Below are positions 3,001 to 60,525 of a DNA stretch of 64,000 bases, one piece after another. The DNA is taken from NCBI GenBank assembly GCA_026395685.1, contig JAPLYG010000013.1, positions 387 to 64,386 on the forward strand. The letters are read 5' to 3'. Within the stretch, counting starts at the first letter, position 1; every line of letters starts with the position of its first letter. The stretch comes from Candidatus Parcubacteria bacterium. GTDB lineage: Bacteria > Patescibacteriota > Patescibacteriia > CAIXNZ01. The notes under the pieces were generated by a model. That model had not been told where the DNA came from. It searched no databases and worked only from the letters and a program-made list of their open reading frames with translations. The translations under genes and the position numbers were made by a program.

Positions 3001-4889
3001 GAACTAAAACTAATATTTTCCTGGACAGTACCTTCAATAATCGAGTCATCTGGTGCTGTCACAGTTACGGTTTGCGGGGTAGCCCAATTAGCGCTGGTAA
3101 ATGTCAATGAAGATGAACTCAAAGCAATCTGCGTACTATGGCTGATATTTATAGTTACATTACCCGTAGGCAATGTTTCCAAAACAACACTAAAAGAATC
3201 ATCAGCCGCAATTCCTTCTTTGACTTCAGTCCGTCCCGGCGTAGCGCCCCCAGATTCATCAACAGTCACACCAGCCTGATCATTATCTGCGACTATTACA
3301 TCCATATTAGGAGCTAGTGAACCGTCATAATCCCCATCTCCGACACTCGTTACAGTATGAGTGATAGTACTAGTCAATTGACCTTCTGCAGTTCCGTCAA
3401 TAGGAGCAGTTATTGTTATTATTTGCGGTGTATTCCAATTTAAAGTGGTAAAGGTAATAAAGCCTCCGCTTAAAATTGGATTTAGCAGGCTATCAGTTAA
3501 ATCAATTCCTGTAGCAGAATCATCATAAGTAAAAAAGACTTTCACATCAGCTGTCGGCGCCGAAGCTAATACCACGCTATAAGAATCTGCTAATCCACCT
3601 TCACGCACAAAGGTATTACCGTTTGTAGGCGTGATTATGACGCCGCTGCGATAAACAGAAACGCTATTTCCGCTGTAAGATTTGAAGTTGAGCAGGTAAA
3701 TATTCTCATACTTATTTATACTGACAAAATCTAATTTGTTATCATTATCAAAGTCAGCTGCCGCTAAATTAATCGGACCCGGAAGAGTATTTAAAGCAGG
3801 CGCTGCAGTAAATGTAAAATTATTATTGCCATGAAATATTTTTATGGCATTATCTGCATAGCTGCTGACTGCCAAATCAACGCCAGCTATATTATCAAAA
3901 TTTCCGGATATAACCCTGGTGCTTTTCTCACCTATCGGATACGATGTCAACCGCTCAGTAAAAGTAAAAGAATTCAAGCCATTATTTTCATAAATTCTAA
4001 GTCGGCTTGCGGTAGCAGTAAAACTCACATCAATCCCCGCCAAGTCAATATCAGTATCGCCATCAAAATCACCGGCCGCAATAAAATCAATATTGCCAGA
4101 TATACCAACACCCGGAGCAAAAGTTCCATCGCCATTATTTTCTAATACTGATAAAGCTGCGGTATCGGCCGGGGCACTGCTCGAGACAACCAAATCATTA
4201 TCTCCATCACCGTCAAAATCAGCGCTAACAATCTGAAGCGGACTCCTGTCAACAGCATAATCCACTGCGGCGGCAAAAGTTCCATCGCCATTATTTAATA
4301 AAACTGATATGGAATCTGAACCGTTATACGGCTTTGTATTATTATAACTATTGGCTACCACCAAATCAAAAGATGCATTTGCATCCAATCTTGTGGCTAT
4401 AATGCCGGTCAGTCCTCTAAGCCCTAACCCTGTCGTATAGCTATCTCCTGGTGTAAATGTAAATACTCCACTGCCATCATTTCGCAAGATGACTATAGTA
4501 TCCGTAGAATAATTAGAGACTGCCAAATCAATATCAGCATCGACATCAAAATCAGCAGCGGTAATTGAATTTGTTCCTTCGCCGACAGCATCATAATTTA
4601 CTGCAGGCAAGAAGGCACCATGACCGTCATTTAATAAAATAGAAACTTGAGCTACTCTGTAATTAACCACAGCCAGATCATTATAGCCGTCACCGTTAAA
4701 ATCAGCTGTTGCTGCCTGGCGCGGATCATCAAGCACCAAATAATTTTCCGGCGCTAAATAGGGATAGGCATTAGAAGTTTTCAAAAAACTCAAACATAAA
4801 AAAAGAATGGCCAAAATAGCCAAACGCCAAGCTGGCCTAAATGTCAGTAATTTTAAGCCGATAATTCTATTTTTAAAATTTGATTTCAT
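1..4889 (-). CDS. Giant cell-surface adhesin-like protein, 3' end runs off the window (at least 1629 codons present). It has FG-GAP/VCBS-like repeats, tandem beta-sandwich domains including Calx-beta-like ones, a DUF11-like region, one TM segment and a C-terminal Cys-rich CGNxxxExGExCD...C.NCQC module.
   Basis: Manual minus-strand translation from the ATG at 4889-4887 (MKSNFKNRIIGLKLLTF...) stays open to position 1. Frame re-checked at about 4200, 2940, 1000 and 1-60. Motifs seen: ADFNGDGYNDLAV, FDGDGDNDLVV, ...TVADNDYVALPQDMLIFNPGETTKTIKVEVNGDTDPELTETFYVNLS. Absent from the ORF track because there is no stop in the window. Confidence 0.7.
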   Translation of the reverse strand, partial: MKSNFKNRIIGLKLLTFRPAWRLAILAILFLCLSFLKTSNAYPYLAPENYLVLDDPRQAATADFNGDGYNDLAVVNYRVAQVSILLNDGHGAFLPAVNYDAVGEGTNSITAADFDVDADIDLAVSNYSTDTIVILRNDGSGVFTFTPGDSYTTGLGLRGLTGIIATRLDANASFDLVVANSYNNTKPYNGSDSISVLLNNGDGTFAAAVDYAVDRSPLQIVSADFDGDGDNDLVVSSSAPADTAALSVLENNGDGTFAPGVGISGNIDFIAAGDFDGDTDIDLAGIDVSFTATASRLRIYENNGLNSFTFTERLTSYPIGEKSTRVISGNFDNIAGVDLAVSSYADNAIKIFHGNNNFTFTAAPALNTLPGPINLAAADFDNDNKLDFVSINKYENIYLLNFKSYSGNSVSVYRSGVIITPTNGNTFVREGGLADSYSVVLASAPTADVKVFFTYDDSATGIDLTDSLLNPILSGGFITFTTLNWNTPQIITITAPIDGTAEGQLTSTITHTVTSVGDGDYDGSLAPNMDVIVADNDQAGVTVDESGGATPGRTEVKEGIAADDSFSVVLETLPTGNVTINISHSTQIALSSSSLTFTSANWATPQTVTVTAPDDSIIEGTVQENISFSSSCADPLSLYDGGIFIPSIIVNIVDVNTLMSNPLYAGRMGDLNNDRFMDPVDVNYLVDMTKSERETNYGADINQDEFAGGGDATGLTAFVKFNNNLISNFEIIIAETEGSTNVTEGGATDTYNLYLRQQPSVDVGVTVSLIADGQVTTDLAQVIFSRLDYYEAQEIIVSAVDDFYVEGAHTGTITHTAASADPNYNGPAAVFMNNGVATPNVVVNITDNDTAGVIVTQTPPPFGTTDVDETTASSDNIFIRLTSLPSSDVIIDFSTPDGQTSVLPVSLTFTPINGMTDQEIIITAVDDAMYEASPHIGKVWGTMTSSDPNYNGIGSLDVNITESPPPDAMPSLSINDVSLLERDSGKRNFNFTVTLSPVSGMQTTVLYDVVDGTATVADNDYVALPQDMLIFNPGETTKTIKVEVNGDTDPELTETFYVNLSSPENATILAGHGQGVGTIANDDTSSEGGLGYNVMPATNLSCQPISNSSLDWTFNDNSTNEIGFRLYGVLASNAYLIKEVATDATHLCNYAGGAAASCRLINEAGLTTNTEYISKVSAYIAAEESFTGLVSCYTLANIPKQVIIAPLSSGILNLKLDPNDGNPANTEYAIKEITTGKYLQSDGNFSDVESWQTYEAWGGAAGIAVIGKPVPAVQIALTSSDPYNLAAKARNGDGVETDLGAGNGQPAPAAIKPNIVATKGVAVNLAKNWGFTLFNTAFASIDLNNNQRYVLNGLSWLLNIALLILGIFFIIGIVSTVKHLRKDYNLSMALAIIDSLIFQKPQHVYEALAVQNNNGVYSQVSYAKHKKMHSISKASLQGILAAGVLKALVLFVMMGGLLGLNHFSSAQSAPYAQSGSADVDDILSYRIDLTNNGTAAAAGIIVTDVLNSHLTYVSGSSKVNNVAVANTGNNLTFNVGALGINESANITFKAKVNTGSEGQTITNQAIVSGSNITSLKTNSTSNLVSSEVIPPVIPPVTPKQSVCGNSIVEAGENCDNSACSTGNECLNCQ

Positions 4890-43816: not shown

Positions 43817-44677
43817 TTAAAATTTACACACGGAAACGCACTGCAAAGTGCACATTTGCGCCTGTGGATCATGGCGGCAGGCTGATTCACATTCAGAAAA
43901 AACTCCGCCGAGCTGTTCGCACACTTGCCTGCTGATATATTCACATTCTTTATATTCAGCCAGCCAGGTGCCGTTATTTTTCTGGCAATCATTGGACTGA
44001 TCACTAACTCCCGGACACGGTGCAAATTCGCAATTCTGACCGCTGCGGCTGACAGCTGAACCATCAGGGCAAATTTTTGCTTCCTGGGTGCAGGCAATTG
44101 GCTCAGGTTCGGTATCAGAAACTACATCTGCCACAATAGAAGCGCATTGGCCGTCAACGCAGGCGCAAGTATAATTTTTCTGTTCATTCCAGGTAGCGCA
44201 ATTGCAATCTTTATCAGCCTGGCATTTTACCTCCCAGGTATTAGTTTTTTCCTCCCACGAAGGACAGCCTACTACGCATTTCTGATTATAACAAAAAGCC
44301 CGGTACGGACAATTAGAACGGGCAGCATAGTCCATAGGCAACTGGCAATCCGCGCTTTGATTACAACTTGAACCTACTGGAACTAAAACCTCAGTAAAAG
44401 TCTGGCCATTAGCTCGGCATTGCCTGGGATATGATTCCATAACCGGATTACCTGCTGCGGCACAGGATTTAAAATCAGTAATTACAGCAGCATTGCTGTT
44501 ACTCTGAGGACCTTCGGGCGCTCTGAATCGGGCAATAACAACAAAGGCAATAAGAATAGCGACAATTACGCCAAAAACAATGAATAATGTGCGCCAAGAT
44601 CCCCCTTTTGATTTAGCATATACTGTCTCTGGCTTATACGCGGACGGGTCATAATCTTTTTTTTGTTCTTCTTCCAT
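43817..44677 (-). CDS. Cys-rich membrane-anchored extracytoplasmic protein. Paralog of 52296..52910.
   Basis: Start refined to MEEEQKKDYD. Shares DFKSCAAAGNPVMESYPRQCRANGQTF and C..EAKICPDGSAVSRSGQNCEFAPCP with the paralog. Confidence 0.55.
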   Translation of the reverse strand: MEEEQKKDYDPSAYKPETVYAKSKGGSWRTLFIVFGVIVAILIAFVVIARFRAPEGPQSNSNAAVITDFKSCAAAGNPVMESYPRQCRANGQTFTEVLVPVGSSCNQSADCQLPMDYAARSNCPYRAFCYNQKCVVGCPSWEEKTNTWEVKCQADKDCNCATWNEQKNYTCACVDGQCASIVADVVSDTEPEPIACTQEAKICPDGSAVSRSGQNCEFAPCPGVSDQSNDCQKNNGTWLAEYKECEYISRQVCEQLGGVFSECESACRHDPQAQMCTLQCVSVCKF

Positions 44678-44711
44678 AAACTTAGTTGTTATTATTAAAT
44701 AAGCTTTATAA

Positions 44712-45956
44712 CTAAAATGATTTATCTTTTTGCGCTGACTGCCCTGCCACAAACCCGGTGGTCCAGCAAATCTGCAGATTAAAACCGCCGGTCGGTCCGT
44801 CCAAATCCAGAATTTCACCGCAGATAAATAAATTATTGATTTTTTTGGAACGCATGGTTTGAGGTTCAACTTCATTCAGGGCAACGCCTCCTTTGGTAAT
44901 CATGGCGCGCTCAAATCCGGCCAAACTTTTAATTTTCAGCCGCAGACCCTTTATTAATTTAACCAAGGATAATCTTTCCTGCCGGCTAATCAGATTGGAT
45001 TTTTTCTCCGGATTTATCCGGCTTAATTTCAATATTACTGACTTTAATTTTGGCAAGACAAAATTATCCAGGCTATTTTTTACCTGTTTGGAGCTGGCTG
45101 CTAAAACCTGCTGTAACTTTTTATCTAAAGACTCCAGATCAGAAAGCGGCATAAAATCAACTTCTATAAATAAATCGTTAAGTTTCCCAGCGTCAATCTG
45201 ACGGCTCAAATCTAAAGTAAGCGGTCCGCTTAAACCATTGGCTGTAAAAATTATATCGCCCTGGGCGCTAGTAATTTTTTTTGCGCCCTGATAAAGGCTG
45301 AGCTTGGCAGCTTCCACGCTCAAACCTTCCAAATCTTTAATAAAGCTTTCCGCCACGATCAGCGGAGTCAGGCTGGGTGCGGGTGAAATCACTGTATGCC
45401 CTAATTGTTTGAGCCAGCCATAGCCGTCACCGCTTGAGCCTGTCTGAGGATATGATTTTCCGCCGGTTGCCAGAATATACTTATCAGCCTCAATTTCCCG
45501 GCCGTCAGTTAAAATAATTTTTTCAATATGTTGATCCTTTTTTACCAACTTTTTTACTTCGCTTTGAGTTTCAACTTTTACCTGGTATTTTTTTAGTTCT
45601 GCTAAAAATACGGCCAGCACATCCTCTGCCTTATTACTCAAAGGAAAAACGCGCTGATCATTTTCCACTTTGGTTTTTAAACCAAGGGCATGAAAAAATT
45701 CCAGAGTATCAGCAACTCCAAAGCGGGTCAAAGCGGAAAATAAAAATTTCGCCTTTGAGCCCAGGCGAGAAATAAAAGCGCGCGAATCTGAAAGATTATT
45801 GGTCAGATTACAGCGACCGCCGCCGGTTAAAAGCAGTTTAACCCCCGGCCGCGGATTTTTTTCCAGCAAAACAACTTTAGCACCCAGTTGACTGCTGGCC
45901 ACGGCTGCCATTAATCCGGCCGGTCCCCCGCCGATAATTGCAATGTCGTATTTCAT
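44712..45956 (-). CDS. FAD-dependent flavoprotein, HI0933/BaiN-like family
   Basis: YDIAIIGGGPAGLMAA dinucleotide-binding motif. Confidence 0.65.
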   Translation of the reverse strand: MKYDIAIIGGGPAGLMAAVASSQLGAKVVLLEKNPRPGVKLLLTGGGRCNLTNNLSDSRAFISRLGSKAKFLFSALTRFGVADTLEFFHALGLKTKVENDQRVFPLSNKAEDVLAVFLAELKKYQVKVETQSEVKKLVKKDQHIEKIILTDGREIEADKYILATGGKSYPQTGSSGDGYGWLKQLGHTVISPAPSLTPLIVAESFIKDLEGLSVEAAKLSLYQGAKKITSAQGDIIFTANGLSGPLTLDLSRQIDAGKLNDLFIEVDFMPLSDLESLDKKLQQVLAASSKQVKNSLDNFVLPKLKSVILKLSRINPEKKSNLISRQERLSLVKLIKGLRLKIKSLAGFERAMITKGGVALNEVEPQTMRSKKINNLFICGEILDLDGPTGGFNLQICWTTGFVAGQSAQKDKSF

Positions 45957-45958
45957 AA

Positions 45959-46495
45959 TTAAATTTTTGTATTAATAGGATTATTTTGATCCTCTGCCCA
46001 TTTGGCTGGATTGGCGAAAATATAATCTCGAATTTTGGATAATTCATCGTCATTGCGGATAACACGGTCGTGGAATGATTTCTGCCAGGCGAAATTTATT
46101 TTGAATTGATTATTAATCCTCCTGGTTACGGATGATTTATATTGGAGGATTATTTTTGGTAAAACCATTTTGGTGTTCCGTAGGGAACGCAGATCTGCGT
46201 TCCCTACATTTTTACGGTATTCATCTTCATTATTATAAAATATATACAATATTCCATGAATATGGTTCGGCATCACAATAAATTCATCCAATTCACAATT
46301 TTTAAAATGTTTTGGAATTTCCTGCCAATAATCATGGGCGATCTTGCCTAAATCGTTCAATGCCTTTTCAAAATCTTTAATTTCACCAAAAAATGGCCCC
46401 CTGCCTTTTGTACATATCGTCACAAAATAATATCCAGGAAATGAATAATCATACCCCTGCCAACGATTTAATTTACGATCCTTTTTCAAAACCAT
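45959..46495 (-). CDS. REP-associated tyrosine transposase-like protein (IS200-like HuH Y1 family), copy 1
   Basis: RKLNRWQGYDYS..YYFVTICT, HuH motif MPNHIHGIL, C-terminal AWQKSFHDRVIRNDDELSKIRDYIFANPAKW with catalytic Tyr. Confidence 0.75.
   Translation of the reverse strand: MVLKKDRKLNRWQGYDYSFPGYYFVTICTKGRGPFFGEIKDFEKALNDLGKIAHDYWQEIPKHFKNCELDEFIVMPNHIHGILYIFYNNEDEYRKNVGNADLRSLRNTKMVLPKIILQYKSSVTRRINNQFKINFAWQKSFHDRVIRNDDELSKIRDYIFANPAKWAEDQNNPINTKI
46180..46207. repeat. REP-like perfect palindrome GTAGGGAACGCAGATCTGCGTTCCCTAC inside RAYT copy 1
   Basis: 28-nt perfect inverted repeat. Encodes ..VGNADLRSLRNT.. . Confidence 0.7.
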
Positions 46496-47106
46496 TTTTT
46501 ATTCATCTTCTTGTTAAAATCTTTTTCCGTATTAACCACCATAAATTTATATTTTCTGGCTTCTTTTTCAATACACCTGCTTTCATACTGAATCATGGCG
46601 CTGGCTTTATCCAATCTGCCAGGCAAATCTATCCCCCCGGCCAAAAGCCAGTCCAGCTTGTCTTTTTTATTTTTGGGAATGCCCTCTTTAATTTTGGCCA
46701 AATCGGTTTTAACCAGATAAACAACCCCGATATCTTTCCAGCAAGCTGTCTTTTTCAGCTGATTGACTAATTTGGGCAATAAATGAACGCCCTCAATTAT
46801 AAAATCCTGATTATATGCCACCAATGCCTTGATCAGTCCCCGCACACCCGGCCAGATAGATTCGGATTCAATCAGCTCATTTTGCCAAAGGGTCTTGGGG
46901 CTATGAATTTCAAAAGCATAGCTACCGGCCTTTTTGAACAAAAAGAAACCTGGAAATTTTTTCTTTAATTGTGATTTTGGGGTGCTATTGAAAACAACTG
47001 TCCAAAGCCTGTCCGTAGAAAGCCAACCAATCTTTTTTCTGCTGGATATTTTCTTGGCCAATATAGATTTTCCGCACCTGGGCGCACCGCCGATTAAATA
47101 AATCAT
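46486..47106 (-). CDS. P-loop NTPase / kinase-like protein, overlaps the RAYT start by 10 nt
   Basis: LIGGAPRCGKS Walker A. Confidence 0.55.
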   Translation of the reverse strand: MIYLIGGAPRCGKSILAKKISSRKKIGWLSTDRLWTVVFNSTPKSQLKKKFPGFFLFKKAGSYAFEIHSPKTLWQNELIESESIWPGVRGLIKALVAYNQDFIIEGVHLLPKLVNQLKKTACWKDIGVVYLVKTDLAKIKEGIPKNKKDKLDWLLAGGIDLPGRLDKASAMIQYESRCIEKEARKYKFMVVNTEKDFNKKMNKKWF

Positions 47107-47119
47107 AATATAATTTAAA

Positions 47120-48067
47120 TTATTCCGCTCTGATTAATTTAAAATCTGCCCATTCGGTAATTGCGCCTGACCCGGCATTATTATAGGAAGTAATCCTGAT
47201 TTTAACAGTTTTGATTTTTGTCTTATCAATCCCGCTTAAATCCGTATCTAATAATTCTTTGAGATTTACGGTTTTTGTCTGCCATTCAAACATGGTGCCG
47301 GGTTCATCATGGCAAATAAACTGTTTGGGGCCAAGTACAGATTCTTTATACATGCGCGGACAATTATATAGTTCGAAATCACCGGTATGGCGCATATAAT
47401 GATAATGCCCCAATAAATTATTGGCATCTGTCTGTCTGGTGGTATGTTCGTCTGAACTATAGAATGAAATACTGAAATATACCGCGCCATATGGCCTGGC
47501 AATCTCTGTTTGCTGCCAGGACCAGATCAAATTATAATTAAAATCCGCTTTCAGATCAGCCGCACTGATATAATAGCTTTTTTCCATATAATAATTTCCG
47601 CCGTCCATGGAATTCATCAGCAAAATATCCTTCTTATTAAAAACTGACTGTTCTTCCTTGCCTGACAAAAGCCCGGGACCGCTGCTTTCATCCTGCCATT
47701 TTCCGAATTTTAAATAATGAATCTCTTCAGGCTGAACCTTTGGTTCTTCAGCAATAACATCATTAGTATTTTGATTTTCTTGCGCGACAGCAACACATTT
47801 TAATGTTGCAGCCGGACAATCACTCATACCCGCCTCAGGACACGCTCCCCACCCCATGGAAACAATCTTAAACTCATAACCGCTGGGACATTTGCAGGGA
47901 ACGGGATTAACAGCATCACGCTCATATTCCTTGCCGATTTCACAGTCATTTTTTGCTACCACATTTTTATTATCATTTTTTATATTATTAACAATTTGAG
48001 GGCCGCTACAACCGCCGATTGCGATGGCTAATAAAATAAGCCCGACGAATAATGTGATTTTTTTCAT
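47120..48067 (-). CDS. Lipoprotein, hypothetical
   Basis: Start refined to MKKITLFVGLILLAIAIGGCSG (lipobox). The ORF-track N-terminal extension overlaps RAYT copy 2. Confidence 0.55.
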   Translation of the reverse strand: MKKITLFVGLILLAIAIGGCSGPQIVNNIKNDNKNVVAKNDCEIGKEYERDAVNPVPCKCPSGYEFKIVSMGWGACPEAGMSDCPAATLKCVAVAQENQNTNDVIAEEPKVQPEEIHYLKFGKWQDESSGPGLLSGKEEQSVFNKKDILLMNSMDGGNYYMEKSYYISAADLKADFNYNLIWSWQQTEIARPYGAVYFSISFYSSDEHTTRQTDANNLLGHYHYMRHTGDFELYNCPRMYKESVLGPKQFICHDEPGTMFEWQTKTVNLKELLDTDLSGIDKTKIKTVKIRITSYNNAGSGAITEWADFKLIRAE

Positions 48068-48077
48068 ACGATAAATA

Positions 48078-48635
48078 TTATTGATTAAAATTTTTAGGAT
48101 TATTCCGATCCTCCGTCCATTTGGCGGGGTTGCCGAAAATATAATCGCGAATTTTGGATAATTCATCGTCATTGCGGATAACACGGTCGTGGAATGATCG
48201 TTGCCATGCAAATTCCGTATGACCAATCTGGTGAATAAATTTTGATGATGTGGTTTTGAATGCGCCGATGATGTCGTAAATTGGTTTCCCTTGTAGGGAC
48301 AGGTCGCGACCTGTCCCTACAGATTTACCGTCATTGCCATCATCGGCGTAACCTGTTTTATCATTATTAAAATTATAATTAATTTCCAAAATCATATGAA
48401 CATGATTGGGCATCACCACCCATTCGTCTAATCGTATGTGCGGAAAATGTTTGTGCAACCATAATAATTGCTGTTTCACAATTTCGCCAATAGGGTTCAA
48501 TTTCATTTCGCCCCCGACAATTTCACCGAATCGGGGCTGACGGTGGTGGGTGCAAATGGTGATAAAATATAATCCGAGATATTTATAATCATATCCTTGC
48601 CACCTGTTTAATTTTCTGTCACGTTTTAAGAACAT
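48078..48635 (-). CDS. REP-associated tyrosine transposase-like protein, copy 2
   Basis: HuH MPNHVHMIL. C-terminus AWQRSFHDRVIRNDDELSKIRDYIFGNPAKW. 3' about 110 nt nearly identical to copy 1. Confidence 0.75.
   Translation of the reverse strand: MFLKRDRKLNRWQGYDYKYLGLYFITICTHHRQPRFGEIVGGEMKLNPIGEIVKQQLLWLHKHFPHIRLDEWVVMPNHVHMILEINYNFNNDKTGYADDGNDGKSVGTGRDLSLQGKPIYDIIGAFKTTSSKFIHQIGHTEFAWQRSFHDRVIRNDDELSKIRDYIFGNPAKWTEDRNNPKNFNQ
48293..48320. repeat. REP-like perfect palindrome GTAGGGACAGGTCGCGACCTGTCCCTAC inside RAYT copy 2
   Basis: 28-nt perfect inverted repeat. Same stem as the intergenic copy at 50753-50781. Confidence 0.7.
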
Positions 48636-48788
48636 TTTGTTTTTATTTTTTCGCTTAAAATCGTTTATGTAAATGTTTTAAATCCGCGGACAATTTGGGA
48701 TTTAAAATCTATTTATGGCTTGAAATTTGTTATTTGGAATTTACCTTTATACTCTAATTTTACCTCTAATCTCAACCCAAGTCAAAGC

Positions 48789-48816
48789 TTGACAAAAAGG
48801 TAAAAAGTGCTAAAAT
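48789..48816 (+). promoter_or_regulatory. Promoter TTGACA-N16-TAAAAT with a TGC extended -10
   Basis: About 60 nt upstream of the 48878 ORF. Confidence 0.5.
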
Positions 48817-48877
48817 ATGCTATTAGCTGTTCTTTCCCAAAATGCTAGATTTCATTCCAAACAATGAGGAGGATACT

Positions 48878-50233
48878 ATGACGCAGATAAGCTGGCCGAT
48901 TCGTTTACCGAAATTGATCGCTGATTTGCACCTCAAATCCGAGGTGGCGCGCCTGGTGCGTAAGGCTAATTTGGACACTGTCCAGGCAGACAATTTTGCG
49001 GAAAAAATTTTCCAAAAATATCTGCGGGATAAAAATTTCAAGGAAGCCCTGCAAATATTTCTGGATCTGGCCATTTCTATCGATATTGCCAAGAAGCTGA
49101 CTATCGGCCCAAACGGTTCGACCAGAAACAGCAATTTCATCATTCAGATTATTGCCGCTTATTTTGCCAGGCGAATATCATATACTGAGCAGGACCTGAC
49201 ATATTTAAAAGCTTTTTCTGCCCAATTAGAATCCCTGGAAACTGAGGAAAATTGGTTTTTTGCCAAAACCTTAGTTCTCCAGGAATATATGGAAAGAATA
49301 ATCGGGGCCAGACTGTATATTAAGGGTCTCAAGATCCTTAACCCTCAACTGTTTATGGAACTGAGTGCCAAAGCATTGCCTGACTTAGCCCAAGACCTGG
49401 AAGCAACTATGAAAGAGCTGACCATTTTGAAACGATATGGCATTAAAACCAGTTTTTTCCAGGACGGAGTTCTTCACGGAATAAATGAGGTTTGGGTTTT
49501 TACTGATTATCGCGACATTATAGCGGCAACCTCTTTTAAAATTTTGGAGGGAAAACCCCTGGCTCTAGTAAGCCTGGCTACCATAGCAGCGATGAAAAAT
49601 CCCTTGTCCTTGAAGGTCAGGGAGGTTGTTACCAGCGATTCTAAGGTTACCCTGGCCGGCTATGAATTAGAAGGGTTTTTATCCTGGTCAATGGATGAAA
49701 AAGCTGAATTTGACGCTTCCAGCGGACTCGGTTTATTGCCGGTCCGTGAAATATTCAGCCAGGCACAAAAATCCGACATCTACGAGATCTTCCGGCTGAC
49801 CCAGGTAATGCGGCTTTATGACCTGATTGTGCCGCTGACAGTCGTGGAACAAATGCCCAAATTGCCCAGGGTAGAAAGTTCCACCCTTAAGAACATCGTC
49901 AACCGTTTCCGGACAGCAGCCAGGCCGTTAAATCCGGACTTGCTGGTACCGCGCATCAGGACAATGGAAAATCCCAGGCATCTGATTGAGGAGCTGGAAA
50001 AAGAGGTGGAAATTGCGGAGCAGGAAACCAAAAAACGCACGCATTGCCATCATGAAGTAATTGATTTCATCCGCCGTCTGCCTCAAGGGTACAAACCTTC
50101 AGCCCGAGCCAGAGCTTTAGCAAAAGAACATCTGGGAATTGAACTGGCTGACAACGAGACTTATGTCAAAAAGCACGAAAGAGGCAAGGGATCTTCCAAT
50201 GCCGGAGTCCATCAGGCCAAACACCGGGAATAA
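48878..50233 (+). CDS. Hypothetical protein (452 aa), GC-rich cassette gene
   Basis: Start refined to MTQISWPIRL after AATGAGGAGG. No recognisable domain. Confidence 0.5.
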   Translation: MTQISWPIRLPKLIADLHLKSEVARLVRKANLDTVQADNFAEKIFQKYLRDKNFKEALQIFLDLAISIDIAKKLTIGPNGSTRNSNFIIQIIAAYFARRISYTEQDLTYLKAFSAQLESLETEENWFFAKTLVLQEYMERIIGARLYIKGLKILNPQLFMELSAKALPDLAQDLEATMKELTILKRYGIKTSFFQDGVLHGINEVWVFTDYRDIIAATSFKILEGKPLALVSLATIAAMKNPLSLKVREVVTSDSKVTLAGYELEGFLSWSMDEKAEFDASSGLGLLPVREIFSQAQKSDIYEIFRLTQVMRLYDLIVPLTVVEQMPKLPRVESSTLKNIVNRFRTAARPLNPDLLVPRIRTMENPRHLIEELEKEVEIAEQETKKRTHCHHEVIDFIRRLPQGYKPSARARALAKEHLGIELADNETYVKKHERGKGSSNAGVHQAKHRE

Positions 50234-50242
50234 CCCAAAACA

Positions 50243-50280
50243 CAAAGGCGCTCCCCGCTCAGCGGAGAACGCCTTTTTTA
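50243..50280 (+). terminator. Hairpin followed by a T-run after the 48878..50233 gene
   Basis: aaaggcgctccccgctcagcggagaacgccttttttat. Confidence 0.55.
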
Positions 50281-50284
50281 TTTG

Positions 50285-50310
50285 AAATTTTTAGGGTTAT
50301 TCGGATCCTC
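50285..50310 (-). mobile_element. Remnant of a RAYT 3' end (AAATTTTTAGGGTTATTCGGATCCTC)
   Basis: Aligns with the last about 26 nt of both RAYT genes (48088-48113, 45962-45990), but no ORF is attached. Confidence 0.55.
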
Positions 50311-50342
50311 TACCCACTTAATTGATTCTTCTTTAAATGGTT

Positions 50343-50660
50343 TTATTGATTATACATCCTGTCAAAATTTTCATCTGTCATTGTTAATAAAATAATAGCG
50401 TCAACAAGGGCGACTATTGCAGGGATAAAAGTCCAGAAAAAAATCAGGTAAAGAACGCCTATTGATTTGCCGAGATAAAATTTATGGATGCCGAGACCTC
50501 CCAAGAATAAAGCCAAAAGGCCTGCTGTAATTTTGCTTTTACCCTGACCAGAAGAGCTGCTTCTTCTAGGAGGCTCCTGGGCATAAAGATTACTACCGCA
50601 ATGTTTGCATTTGATCGCCGAATCCTGGATTTCTTCGGCGCAAAACGGACATTTTTTCAT
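50343..50660 (-). CDS. Zinc-ribbon plus TM2-domain small membrane protein
   Basis: CPFC...CKHCG ribbon. GLLALFLGGLGIHKFYLG is the TM2 signature. Confidence 0.6.
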   Translation of the reverse strand: MKKCPFCAEEIQDSAIKCKHCGSNLYAQEPPRRSSSSGQGKSKITAGLLALFLGGLGIHKFYLGKSIGVLYLIFFWTFIPAIVALVDAIILLTMTDENFDRMYNQ

Positions 50661-50715
50661 AGATTATAAATTTAATTTTAAAAATATTTTGATTATAATT
50701 GTTTATGTAAATGAT

Positions 50716-50799
50716 TTAAATCCGCGAACAATTACTGATAACCCACGTAATGTAGGGACAGGTTTCAAACCTGTCCCTACGGTCCCCGCGGATTTAAAA
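50716..50799. repeat. Composite REP element. The 12-bp inverted repeat TTTAAATCCGCG/CGCGGATTTAAA flanks the REP hairpin GTAGGGACAGGTTTCAAACCTGTCCCTAC.
   Basis: Nested perfect palindromes. The outer-arm sequence tttatgtaaatgNtttaaatccgcgNacaatt also occurs at 48658-48700. Confidence 0.7.
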
Positions 50800-52295: not shown

Positions 52296-52910
52296 TTATC
52301 TAATCCCTGAATCGCAGGAAAAATCAATTTTTAAATTTGCTGCTGAAGTCACTGTCACATCCTGAGCTTCACAACGAGGCAAAACTCTGCCGCCACTGGG
52401 CTGAAAATTATATTCGCCCACCGGTAAAACAACCTGATATCTGCCCTGTTCATCTGTTTGAATAACTTTATAAGGCGCGCCAGCCGGGCTATTACGATCA
52501 ATGATTTGAATGCCGGTTTGATATGGTTTATCAGCGCAAGCCGGATCAGGCGGATTTTTCATGACCGGACAAGTCGGTTCCAATATAACCTGACCGCTGA
52601 CAGTGCCTGTCTTGGATTCTGTGGGACAAGCGCTAAACTCGCAATTGGGACCTGTACGACCGACTGCCGAACCATCAGGACACAGTTTGGCTTCCATGCT
52701 ACAGGCTATTTGGTTTGTATTGTTTAAATTACCATCAATAAGCTCCACAAAATTCTGGCCATTGGCTCGGCATTGTCTGGGATATGATTCCATAACAGGA
52801 TTACCTGCTGCAACGCAGGATTCAAAGTCAGTGACTTTAGCTGGCGTTTTAAAAAGGCTGCAAGCGGAAAGTAAAAACGCTAACGATAAAACGAAAAAAA
52901 CTTTTTTCAT
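52296..52910 (-). CDS. Cys-rich lipoprotein. Paralog of 43817..44677.
   Basis: Lipobox LLSACS. DFESCVAAGNPVMESYPRQCRANGQNF. About 55 nt of near-identical DNA with the paralog (52756-52811 versus 44402-44458). Confidence 0.55.
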   Translation of the reverse strand: MKKVFFVLSLAFLLSACSLFKTPAKVTDFESCVAAGNPVMESYPRQCRANGQNFVELIDGNLNNTNQIACSMEAKLCPDGSAVGRTGPNCEFSACPTESKTGTVSGQVILEPTCPVMKNPPDPACADKPYQTGIQIIDRNSPAGAPYKVIQTDEQGRYQVVLPVGEYNFQPSGGRVLPRCEAQDVTVTSAANLKIDFSCDSGIR

Positions 52911-60435: not shown

Positions 60436-60525
60436 GGGGGCGAAAAGGGCATTGTTCCCGGACGGTAGAGACATGGCATGCCATGTCTCTACCAATGGGT
60501 GTAACCCATACAGCCCTTTTCGCCC
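60436..60525 (-). other. Nested palindrome element. The 13-bp outer stem GGGCGAAAAGGGC/GCCCTTTTCGCCC encloses a perfect 30-nt palindrome GGTAGAGACATGGCATGCCATGTCTCTACC and a third small hairpin.
   Basis: Seen directly in sequence. Candidate structured RNA or recombination site. Confidence 0.35.

Follow-up and report, generated by a model that had tools for sequence, protein, structure and literature searches.

Two RAYT genes with palindromes in their reading frames

We analysed a 64,000-nucleotide stretch of a Candidatus Parcubacteria genome (assembly GCA_026395685.1, contig JAPLYG010000013.1, positions 387 to 64,386 of the forward strand; hereafter the window), which contains two genes for REP-associated tyrosine transposases (RAYTs, or TnpA_REP), each with a hairpin of the repetitive extragenic palindrome (REP) type inside its own open reading frame (ORF). 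The genes, here called copy 1 and copy 2 (locus tags NTZ49_03720 and NTZ49_03735; Table 1), lie on a 107-kb contig of a metagenome-assembled genome. Both carry the HuH motif and the tyrosine-containing tail that a first-pass annotation of this DNA had pointed out, as MPNHIH and DYIFANPAKW in copy 1 and as MPNHVH and DYIFGNPAKW in copy 2, and the two proteins are 53-55% identical to one another.

Pfam, profile, structure and NCBIfam searches point to RAYT-type Y1 HUH genes, as that annotation had proposed. The Pfam Y1_Tnp scores are 28.2 bits for copy 1 and 25.6 bits for copy 2 (gathering score 23), and REP_Tyr_transpos is the sole NCBIfam family matched by either protein, with E-values near 1e-16 (1.4e-16 for copy 1). 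Residues H78, H80 and Y165, together with W144 and Q145, show no variation in an alignment of 38 sequences. A profile of the 38 homologs has a single match among solved structures, that of E. coli TnpA_REP with a REP hairpin (4ER8; E = 4.8e-6). We modeled copy 2 with AlphaFold2 (predicted local distance difference test score (pLDDT) 84.3, predicted template-modeling score (pTM) 0.80), and a Foldseek search with this model returned the same structure as the best match (4er8_A; E = 3.7e-6, 21% identity), followed by the IS608, ISDra2 and IS200 TnpA proteins. At least 29 PDB entries matched at E ≤ 1e-3, and among the matches listed all were TnpA_REP, IS200/IS605-family TnpA or putative transposases. 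With the HuH/Y1 fold present in the model and supported by Pfam, the profile and the invariant residues, the objection that the proteins might lack this fold, which the first-pass annotation had raised against its own reading, falls away. We take copy 1 and copy 2 to be paralogous RAYTs of the HUH/Y1 type.

Each ORF contains a perfect 28-nt palindrome between HuH and Tyr, as had been noticed from the letters, and the two palindromes are in the same reading frame. Both are hairpins of REP type, footed by GTAG: like the third GTAGGG hairpin in the window, they have a GTAG foot on the 5' side, CTAC on the 3' side and three G-C pairs at the base of the stem. The pattern GTAGGG-N8-30-CCCTAC matches three times in the window, against 0.00 matches expected from shuffled sequences, and a relaxed window-wide scan for GT[AG]G...C[TC]AC hairpins with up to two mismatches found four such "double-foot" hairpins, against 0.18 in shuffles. 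All four fold as single-stranded DNA far better than shuffled sequences (z = -5.0 to -9.4), with z = -5.5 for the palindrome of copy 1 and z = -5.0 for that of copy 2. A chance origin of the palindromes is ruled out by the shuffles.

In the model of copy 2, the REP-coded residues coincide exactly with the stretch of pLDDT below 50, between the strand formed by residues 78-85 and the helix formed by residues 118-136. As modeled, the REP sits in the stretch that codes for the loop between the HuH strand (β3) and helix αC, and it is translated into a peripheral loop, predicted to be disordered, that the enzyme appears to tolerate.

Table 1. Coordinates of the RAYT genes, palindromes and associated features in the window
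Feature	Position	Strand	Details
RAYT/TnpA_REP paralog 1 (copy 1)	45959-46495	minus	178 aa; HuH motif NHIH, WQ, Tyr in DYIFANP
RAYT/TnpA_REP paralog 2 (copy 2)	48078-48635	minus	185 aa; HuH motif NHVH, WQ, Tyr in DYIFGNP
In-ORF double-foot REP 1	46180-46207		Perfect 28-nt palindrome GTAGGGAACGCAGATCTGCGTTCCCTAC; encodes VGNADLRSL
In-ORF double-foot REP 2	48293-48320		Perfect palindrome GTAGGGACAGGTCGCGACCTGTCCCTAC, 30 nt at 48292-48321; encodes VGTGRDLSL, residues 106-114
Near-identical 3' segment of copy 1	45976-46079	minus	Partner of 48095-48198
Near-identical 3' segment of copy 2	48095-48198	minus	Partner of 45976-46079
Remnant of third RAYT gene	50281-50322	minus	Last 13 codons and stop; KWVEDPNNPKNFK then stop
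47-nt segment upstream of copy 2	48649-48695		Recurs upstream of TM2 gene at 50687-50733, 87% identity
Intergenic double-foot REP	50752-50780		GTAGGGACAGGTTTCAAACCTGTCCCTAC; 29 nt, odd centre
Nested palindromic element	50715-50798		12-bp outer stem TTTAAATCCGCG / CGCGGATTTAAA around the REP and a small side hairpin
Second nested intergenic element	60438-60525		13-bp outer stem around a GTAGAGAC-type double-foot REP (60465-60492) and a small side hairpin
P-loop ORF	46486-47106		Upstream of copy 1; end overlaps copy 1 start by 10 nt
TM2/zinc-ribbon gene	50343-50660	minus	

The in-frame REP across homologous loci

We surveyed 80 homologous loci (given below by L-numbers) from Patescibacteria, Bacteroidota, Omnitrophota, Latescibacterota, Leptospiraceae, Chloroflexi and others, scoring GC-rich perfect hairpins of at least 9 bp. 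An in-ORF hairpin is present in 60 of the 80 loci, mostly at one shared position, and the REP-derived type of peptide occurs in 96 of the 120 best protein homologs. Hairpin density is 1.54 per kb in the RAYT ORF versus 0.17 per kb in the flanks, and hairpin positions relative to the gene peak at -300 to -1, at +200 to +400 (inside the gene) and at +500 to +700. Most homologous loci, unlike the window genes, carry flanking REPs. The in-ORF hairpin had at first been taken for an oddity; it is instead the norm in this clade, and it has been published as the peculiarity that defines TnpA_Y1 subclass 2.4 (PMC6006769).

The 28-mer of copy 2 recurs unchanged within the ORFs of many homologs, and the GTAGGGAACGCAGATCTGCGTTCCCTAC palindrome is found within the ORFs of L041 and L060 and again upstream of the L060 gene. 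Across the survey we counted 37 distinct arms with compensatory changes. Of 53 loci compared, 27 have a second hairpin arm, mostly less than 1 kb from the gene, that is identical to the inner 9 nt of the arm inside the ORF; a permutation control in which loci were paired at random gave 2.7 matches expected and a maximum of 8. L059 shows a single REP doublet both upstream of the ORF and inside it.

One and the same 28-mer is translated in two frames, as VGTGRDLSL in one and as RDRSRPVPT in the other (L011, L048, L052), and its third frame holds a TAG stop. All nine codons of VGTGRDLSL are fixed in 8 of 8 occurrences, whereas other conserved residues of these genes are encoded by two to six synonymous codons. 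Moreover, the peptide variants VGTGRD-LSL, VGNGRD-RSL, VGNADL-RSL and VGTGLD-LSL are exactly the outcome of compensatory changes in the arms. Because one palindrome is read in two frames and its codons are fixed, the constraint acts on the DNA and not on the peptide; on this sequence evidence, the REP is a DNA-level element rather than a conserved peptide motif.

In the homologs, HxH and the αC motif are separated by about 31 to 76 aa. Those without a hairpin have short linkers (for example HIHGILEINQESIAEGVKIKPLSELMGAYKTT), yet several of them keep their flanking REPs (L027, L034, L038, L045, L056). As the hairpin segment is missing from short-linker homologs, it behaves as an insertion. The first-pass annotation had asked whether the segment is conserved in homologs that lack the REP, and we found no such conservation in homologs without the hairpin; together with the low pLDDT of the REP-coded residues, this agrees with its suggestion of a REP insertion tolerated as a surface loop. 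Differences are also seen at close range. L056, without a REP, and L016, with one, share 75% core identity, and L052 and L002, which are 70% identical, read the REP in different frames. L019 contains two in-ORF REPs, L042 has relics only, and decayed copies or relics are present in L050 as well as in L042. From these differences among close relatives in presence, frame and copy number, we infer recurrent insertion and decay at this site.

In L002 (~4104-4691), L030, L036 and L037, the loop holds tandem repeats of the left REP arm alone, with VGTGRDAAS three times and then a full VGTGRDLSL as one example. These tandem arms suggest that the in-ORF REP has been partially duplicated, or has been the site of abortive insertions, more than once. 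Three flavobacterial homologs (L019, L028, L054) have a REP at a second, N-terminal site in the ORF (nt ~110-150), accompanied by the REP between β3 and αC in L019 and on its own in L028 and L054.

We also compared stem mismatches of the G-T and A-C type on the sense strand. The ratio is 12:12 in ORFs and 15:12 in flanks, in a comparison of low power where many scored mismatches lie outside the true REP; given no bias of G-T over A-C, there is at this power no sign of selection at the RNA level.

Paralog tails, intergenic REPs and neighbouring genes

The 3' ends of the two RAYT genes are nearly identical, over 104 nt at 92% nucleotide identity where about 110 nt had been claimed. Within this tract, about 70 nt differ at two positions, and elsewhere the nucleotide identity of the paralogs is about 55%. 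Where the residues are identical, third codon positions agree in 86% of cases in the tail and in 63% over the rest of the gene. The tails were probably homogenised by recent gene conversion over about 100 nt.

A 26-nt RAYT 3' remnant reported downstream of the 463-aa gene proved real and longer than stated: its core (50285-50310) matches at 92% over 26 nt and extends to about 42 nt. We read it as a third RAYT copy reduced to this 42-nt tail; no RAYT copies or remnants were found in the window beyond this tail and the two genes. The TM2/zinc-ribbon gene lies between the tail and the second occurrence of the 47-nt segment found upstream of copy 2, and it looks as if placed where the third RAYT was lost, or as if sharing its promoter region. 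When we compared the region upstream of copy 2 with the REP-bearing region upstream of the TM2 gene as an empty and a filled site, about 55 nt on the left side of the REP were clearly homologous and the homology on its right was unconvincing, so insertion boundaries are not callable upstream of the TM2 gene.

The intergenic REP in this region lies 2.1 kb from the RAYT genes. The first-pass annotation had equated its stem with that of copy 2, placing it at 50753-50781. This holds for the outer 12 nt of each arm, but the centre differs (TTTCAAA versus TCGCGA in copy 2) and the coordinates were one base off. Among in-ORF REPs, those of L053 and L055, members of a different subclade, resemble it most, and as its TTTCAAA centre is closest to theirs, its assignment to copy 2 is uncertain. 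The two nested elements fold stably as single-stranded DNA, at -26.1 kcal/mol (z = -7.6) for the one around this REP and at -33.9 kcal/mol (z = -9.4) for the second; a related CCCGGACGGTAGAGAC... hairpin, akin to the REP at 60465-60492, is found in L001. Each nested element is about 85 nt long, and their outer stems have no sequence kinship to each other. The nested layout of both intergenic REPs is unlike the usual REP doublet (REPIN).

Copy 1 lies tightly between the P-loop ORF and an HI0933-like flavoprotein gene, and given its 10-nt overlap with the former, the two may be translationally coupled. The 316-aa and 463-aa proteins encoded nearby have no family in NCBIfam or Pfam. Further out, two stretches of 87-102 nt with 72-83% identity, in segments 44013-44488 and 52624-52841, link two cysteine-rich secreted or lipoprotein-like ORFs (43817-44875 and 52296-52910) that lie about 8 kb apart and flank the RAYT region; both ORFs contain CVAAGNPVMESYPRQCRANGQ, and they are therefore paralogous genes.

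A scan of 2.9 million viral contigs for the 28-mer of copy 2 gave four solo matches, none with a RAYT homolog. The exact GTAGGGACAGGTCGCGACCTGTCCCTAC sequence occurs once in each of these four IMG/VR contigs (L082-L085), and the stretches fetched around it are devoid of RAYT homologs. A phage link of the 28-mer is not supported by these four RAYT-less matches.

Origin of the in-frame REP and relation to known systems

We consider it probable that the window genes are paralogous RAYTs of TnpA_Y1 subclass 2.4 with an in-frame, DNA-level REP in a tolerated loop, where REPs are recurrently inserted and decay. TnpA_REP enzymes process their cognate single-stranded REPs in vitro, and the GTAG motif acts in recognition and in the choice of the cleavage site (PMC8266576). 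By analogy, the window enzymes would bind the folded single-stranded REP via its GTAG foot and stem, and may cleave and rejoin DNA near it, as has been seen in vitro for the enzymes of E. coli, S. maltophilia and Marinomonas. REPs would then have been repeatedly inserted into, duplicated within and decayed from a permissive site of the enzyme's own gene, likely because the enzyme acts preferentially close to its own gene and to existing REPs, and because selection spares only insertions that are in frame and located in the loop.

Several points weigh against this account. The REP_Tyr_transpos scores of 59-61 bits fall short of the curated equivalog cut-off of 80 bits, and the Y motif of the window proteins (YIFANP or YIFGNP) has A or G at position 4 and not the N of subclass 2.4, with aligned homologs of the window genes showing YIxNNP, YIQQNP and similar motifs. 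The window-wide scan, allowing up to two mismatches, found no REPs flanking either gene; the REPtron layout is absent, and the two in-ORF REPs are therefore the sole REPs tied to both genes. Cleavage of the window REPs is suggested by homology to characterised enzymes, and insertion preferentially in cis is our conjecture. Finally, palindromes this perfect, and identical across phyla, could have been kept by selection on some function of the in-ORF hairpin instead of by neutral tolerance and homogenisation.

This last point leads to a different reading, close to the self-targeting or autoregulatory structure suggested by the first-pass annotation, in which the in-ORF REP is a functional element, either a self-recognition site for autoregulation of enzyme expression or dosage, or a protected master copy that seeds extragenic REPs. 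As a regulator, the enzyme would act on itself by binding the hairpin either in its gene, exposed as single-stranded DNA in replication or transcription, or in its mRNA, and would repress its own expression; alternatively, the enzyme and its recognition sequence would be tied into one heritable unit. If true, this would explain why perfect palindromes with fixed codons occupy one site across many phyla, including streamlined genomes of the Candidate Phyla Radiation (CPR) in which almost no extragenic REPs remain. That 60 of 80 loci carry the hairpin, mostly at one site, speaks for such a role, but about a quarter of the homologs, with an intact ORF and flanking REPs, do without the in-ORF hairpin (L027, L032, L034, L038, L045, L056). 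Perfect palindromes with codons fixed across phyla, and arm changes that are compensatory and in 27 of 53 loci follow other hairpins of the locus, most of them beside the gene, would also be expected of a functional site; against this, close relatives vary in presence, frame, position and copy number (0-3) and include decayed relics, a picture resembling insertion debris. Within the window, neither gene has a REP besides its in-ORF copy, and the in-ORF copies are predicted to form strong hairpins (z = -5.0 to -5.5), whereas the mismatch bias is absent on the sense strand (12:12, low power). That some close relatives have the in-ORF REP and others lack it argues against its being essential, and because gains, losses and decay among them fit tolerated insertion at a hot spot better, we regard a functional element as unlikely.

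We find it very improbable that the region is an IS200/IS605-like or composite element in which the RAYTs mobilise the P-loop, 463-aa and TM2 genes as cargo, although 4.4 kb hold two RAYT copies and a remnant, the 47-nt segment stands upstream of copy 2 and again of the TM2 gene, and the remnant is downstream of the latter. At 53-55% protein identity, the copies are old paralogs, and subterminal hairpins flanking the genes are absent from the window-wide scan. A tblastn search with the P-loop, 316-aa, 463-aa and TM2 proteins found nothing relevant in 81 other RAYT loci, leaving the putative cargo genes without homologs there, and the closest ortholog (74% identity, with the same in-ORF 28-mer) sits among unrelated neighbours. 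The "GC-rich cargo" of the first-pass annotation was likewise overstated: GC content is about 44% in the 463-aa gene and about 39% locally, a small difference of about five points. On these grounds, its proposal of RAYT-mediated cargo mobilisation finds no support, and the adjacent genes appear to be ordinary neighbours. Least credible of all is that VGTGRDLSL, conserved as it is in many aligned homologs, is a functional peptide motif with incidentally palindromic DNA, since the same DNA is translated as RDRSRPVPT in other homologs, its codons are fixed where synonymous variation is expected, peptide changes follow compensatory arm changes exactly (TG..LS, NG..RS, NA..RS), and the segment is missing in short-linker homologs and predicted to be disordered.

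Returning to recurrent insertion of a REP into a tolerated loop, we compared the window genes with known systems. With the TnpA proteins of IS200/IS605 elements (IS608, ISDra2, IS200), they share the HUH/Y1 fold and an association with single-stranded DNA hairpins that carry a 5' guide tetranucleotide. The hairpins of these insertion sequences (IS) are subterminal and flank the gene, and the elements occur in many near-identical copies, whereas the window hairpins lie within the ORFs of copies that are 53-55% identical; the window-wide hairpin scan found none flanking the RAYT genes, and element ends are absent. The E. coli TnpA_REP and its REPtron (4ER8; Messing 2012, Ton-Hoang 2012, Corneloup 2021) have in common with the window genes the fold, a GTAG-footed hairpin, and the WQ-type and Y residues. 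The E. coli enzyme nevertheless belongs to subclass 2.2, with DHLH and WE motifs, bulged imperfect REPs, a C-terminal tail and 21% identity, and its REPs flank the gene with none inside, whereas those of the window lie inside the ORF. Short palindromes in frame, tolerated as extra loop residues, are also known as Rickettsia palindromic elements and as intragenic GTAG/CGTC REPs, and Di Nocera et al. 2013 described intragenic GTAG REPs in other genes (PMC3733652). Insertions of these kinds are scattered over unrelated host genes; in the window and its homologs, the gene that is hit encodes the transposase of the REP itself, and a single site recurs from phylum to phylum.

The closest likeness is to TnpA_Y1 subclass 2.4, defined by Quentin, Siguier, Chandler and Fichant (2018; BMC Genomics 19:475; PMC6006769) and equivalent to RAYT group 4 of Bertels et al. 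2017 (PMC6006769). Proteins of subclass 2.4 are described as having a median length of 194 aa; they carry NH[IFV]H, WQ and YIxNNP as motifs, and their β3-αC insertion varies greatly in length and sequence (PMC6006769). The REPs are of two named types: "canonical long" REPs have three G-C pairs at the base of the stem, and "double foot" REPs have 5' GT[AG]G and 3' C[TC]AC (PMC6006769). REPs inside tnpAREP genes are the unique and predominant trait of the subclass, in frame between HuH and Y, and were modelled as a peripheral extension (PMC6006769). The window genes share the NH[IV]H and WQ motifs, a tyrosine motif that fits YIxxNP but has A or G as its fourth residue, a length of about 180-195 aa without C-terminal extension, the variable β3-αC insertion, and long double-foot REPs with three basal G-C pairs, placed in frame between HuH and Y. 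They differ in having no flanking REPs and in coming from Parcubacteria (CPR), whereas the published taxa are chiefly Cyanobacteria and Bacteroidetes; their probable membership is assigned here by motifs and features. A search of the literature on in-ORF REPs after 2018 and on RAYTs in Patescibacteria found nothing relevant. The in-ORF REP was thus published in 2018 as a hallmark of the subclass, and the window genes are new examples of it, not a new phenomenon. To that description our survey adds DNA-level constraint and turnover of the site, evidenced by two reading frames, fixed codons, arms that match nearby REPs, and presence or absence among close relatives, and it leaves the classification unchanged. 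As compact cases, with two paralogs, different cognate palindromes side by side and almost no extragenic REPs, the window genes could serve to distinguish an in-ORF REP that is neutral debris from one that is a self-recognition element.

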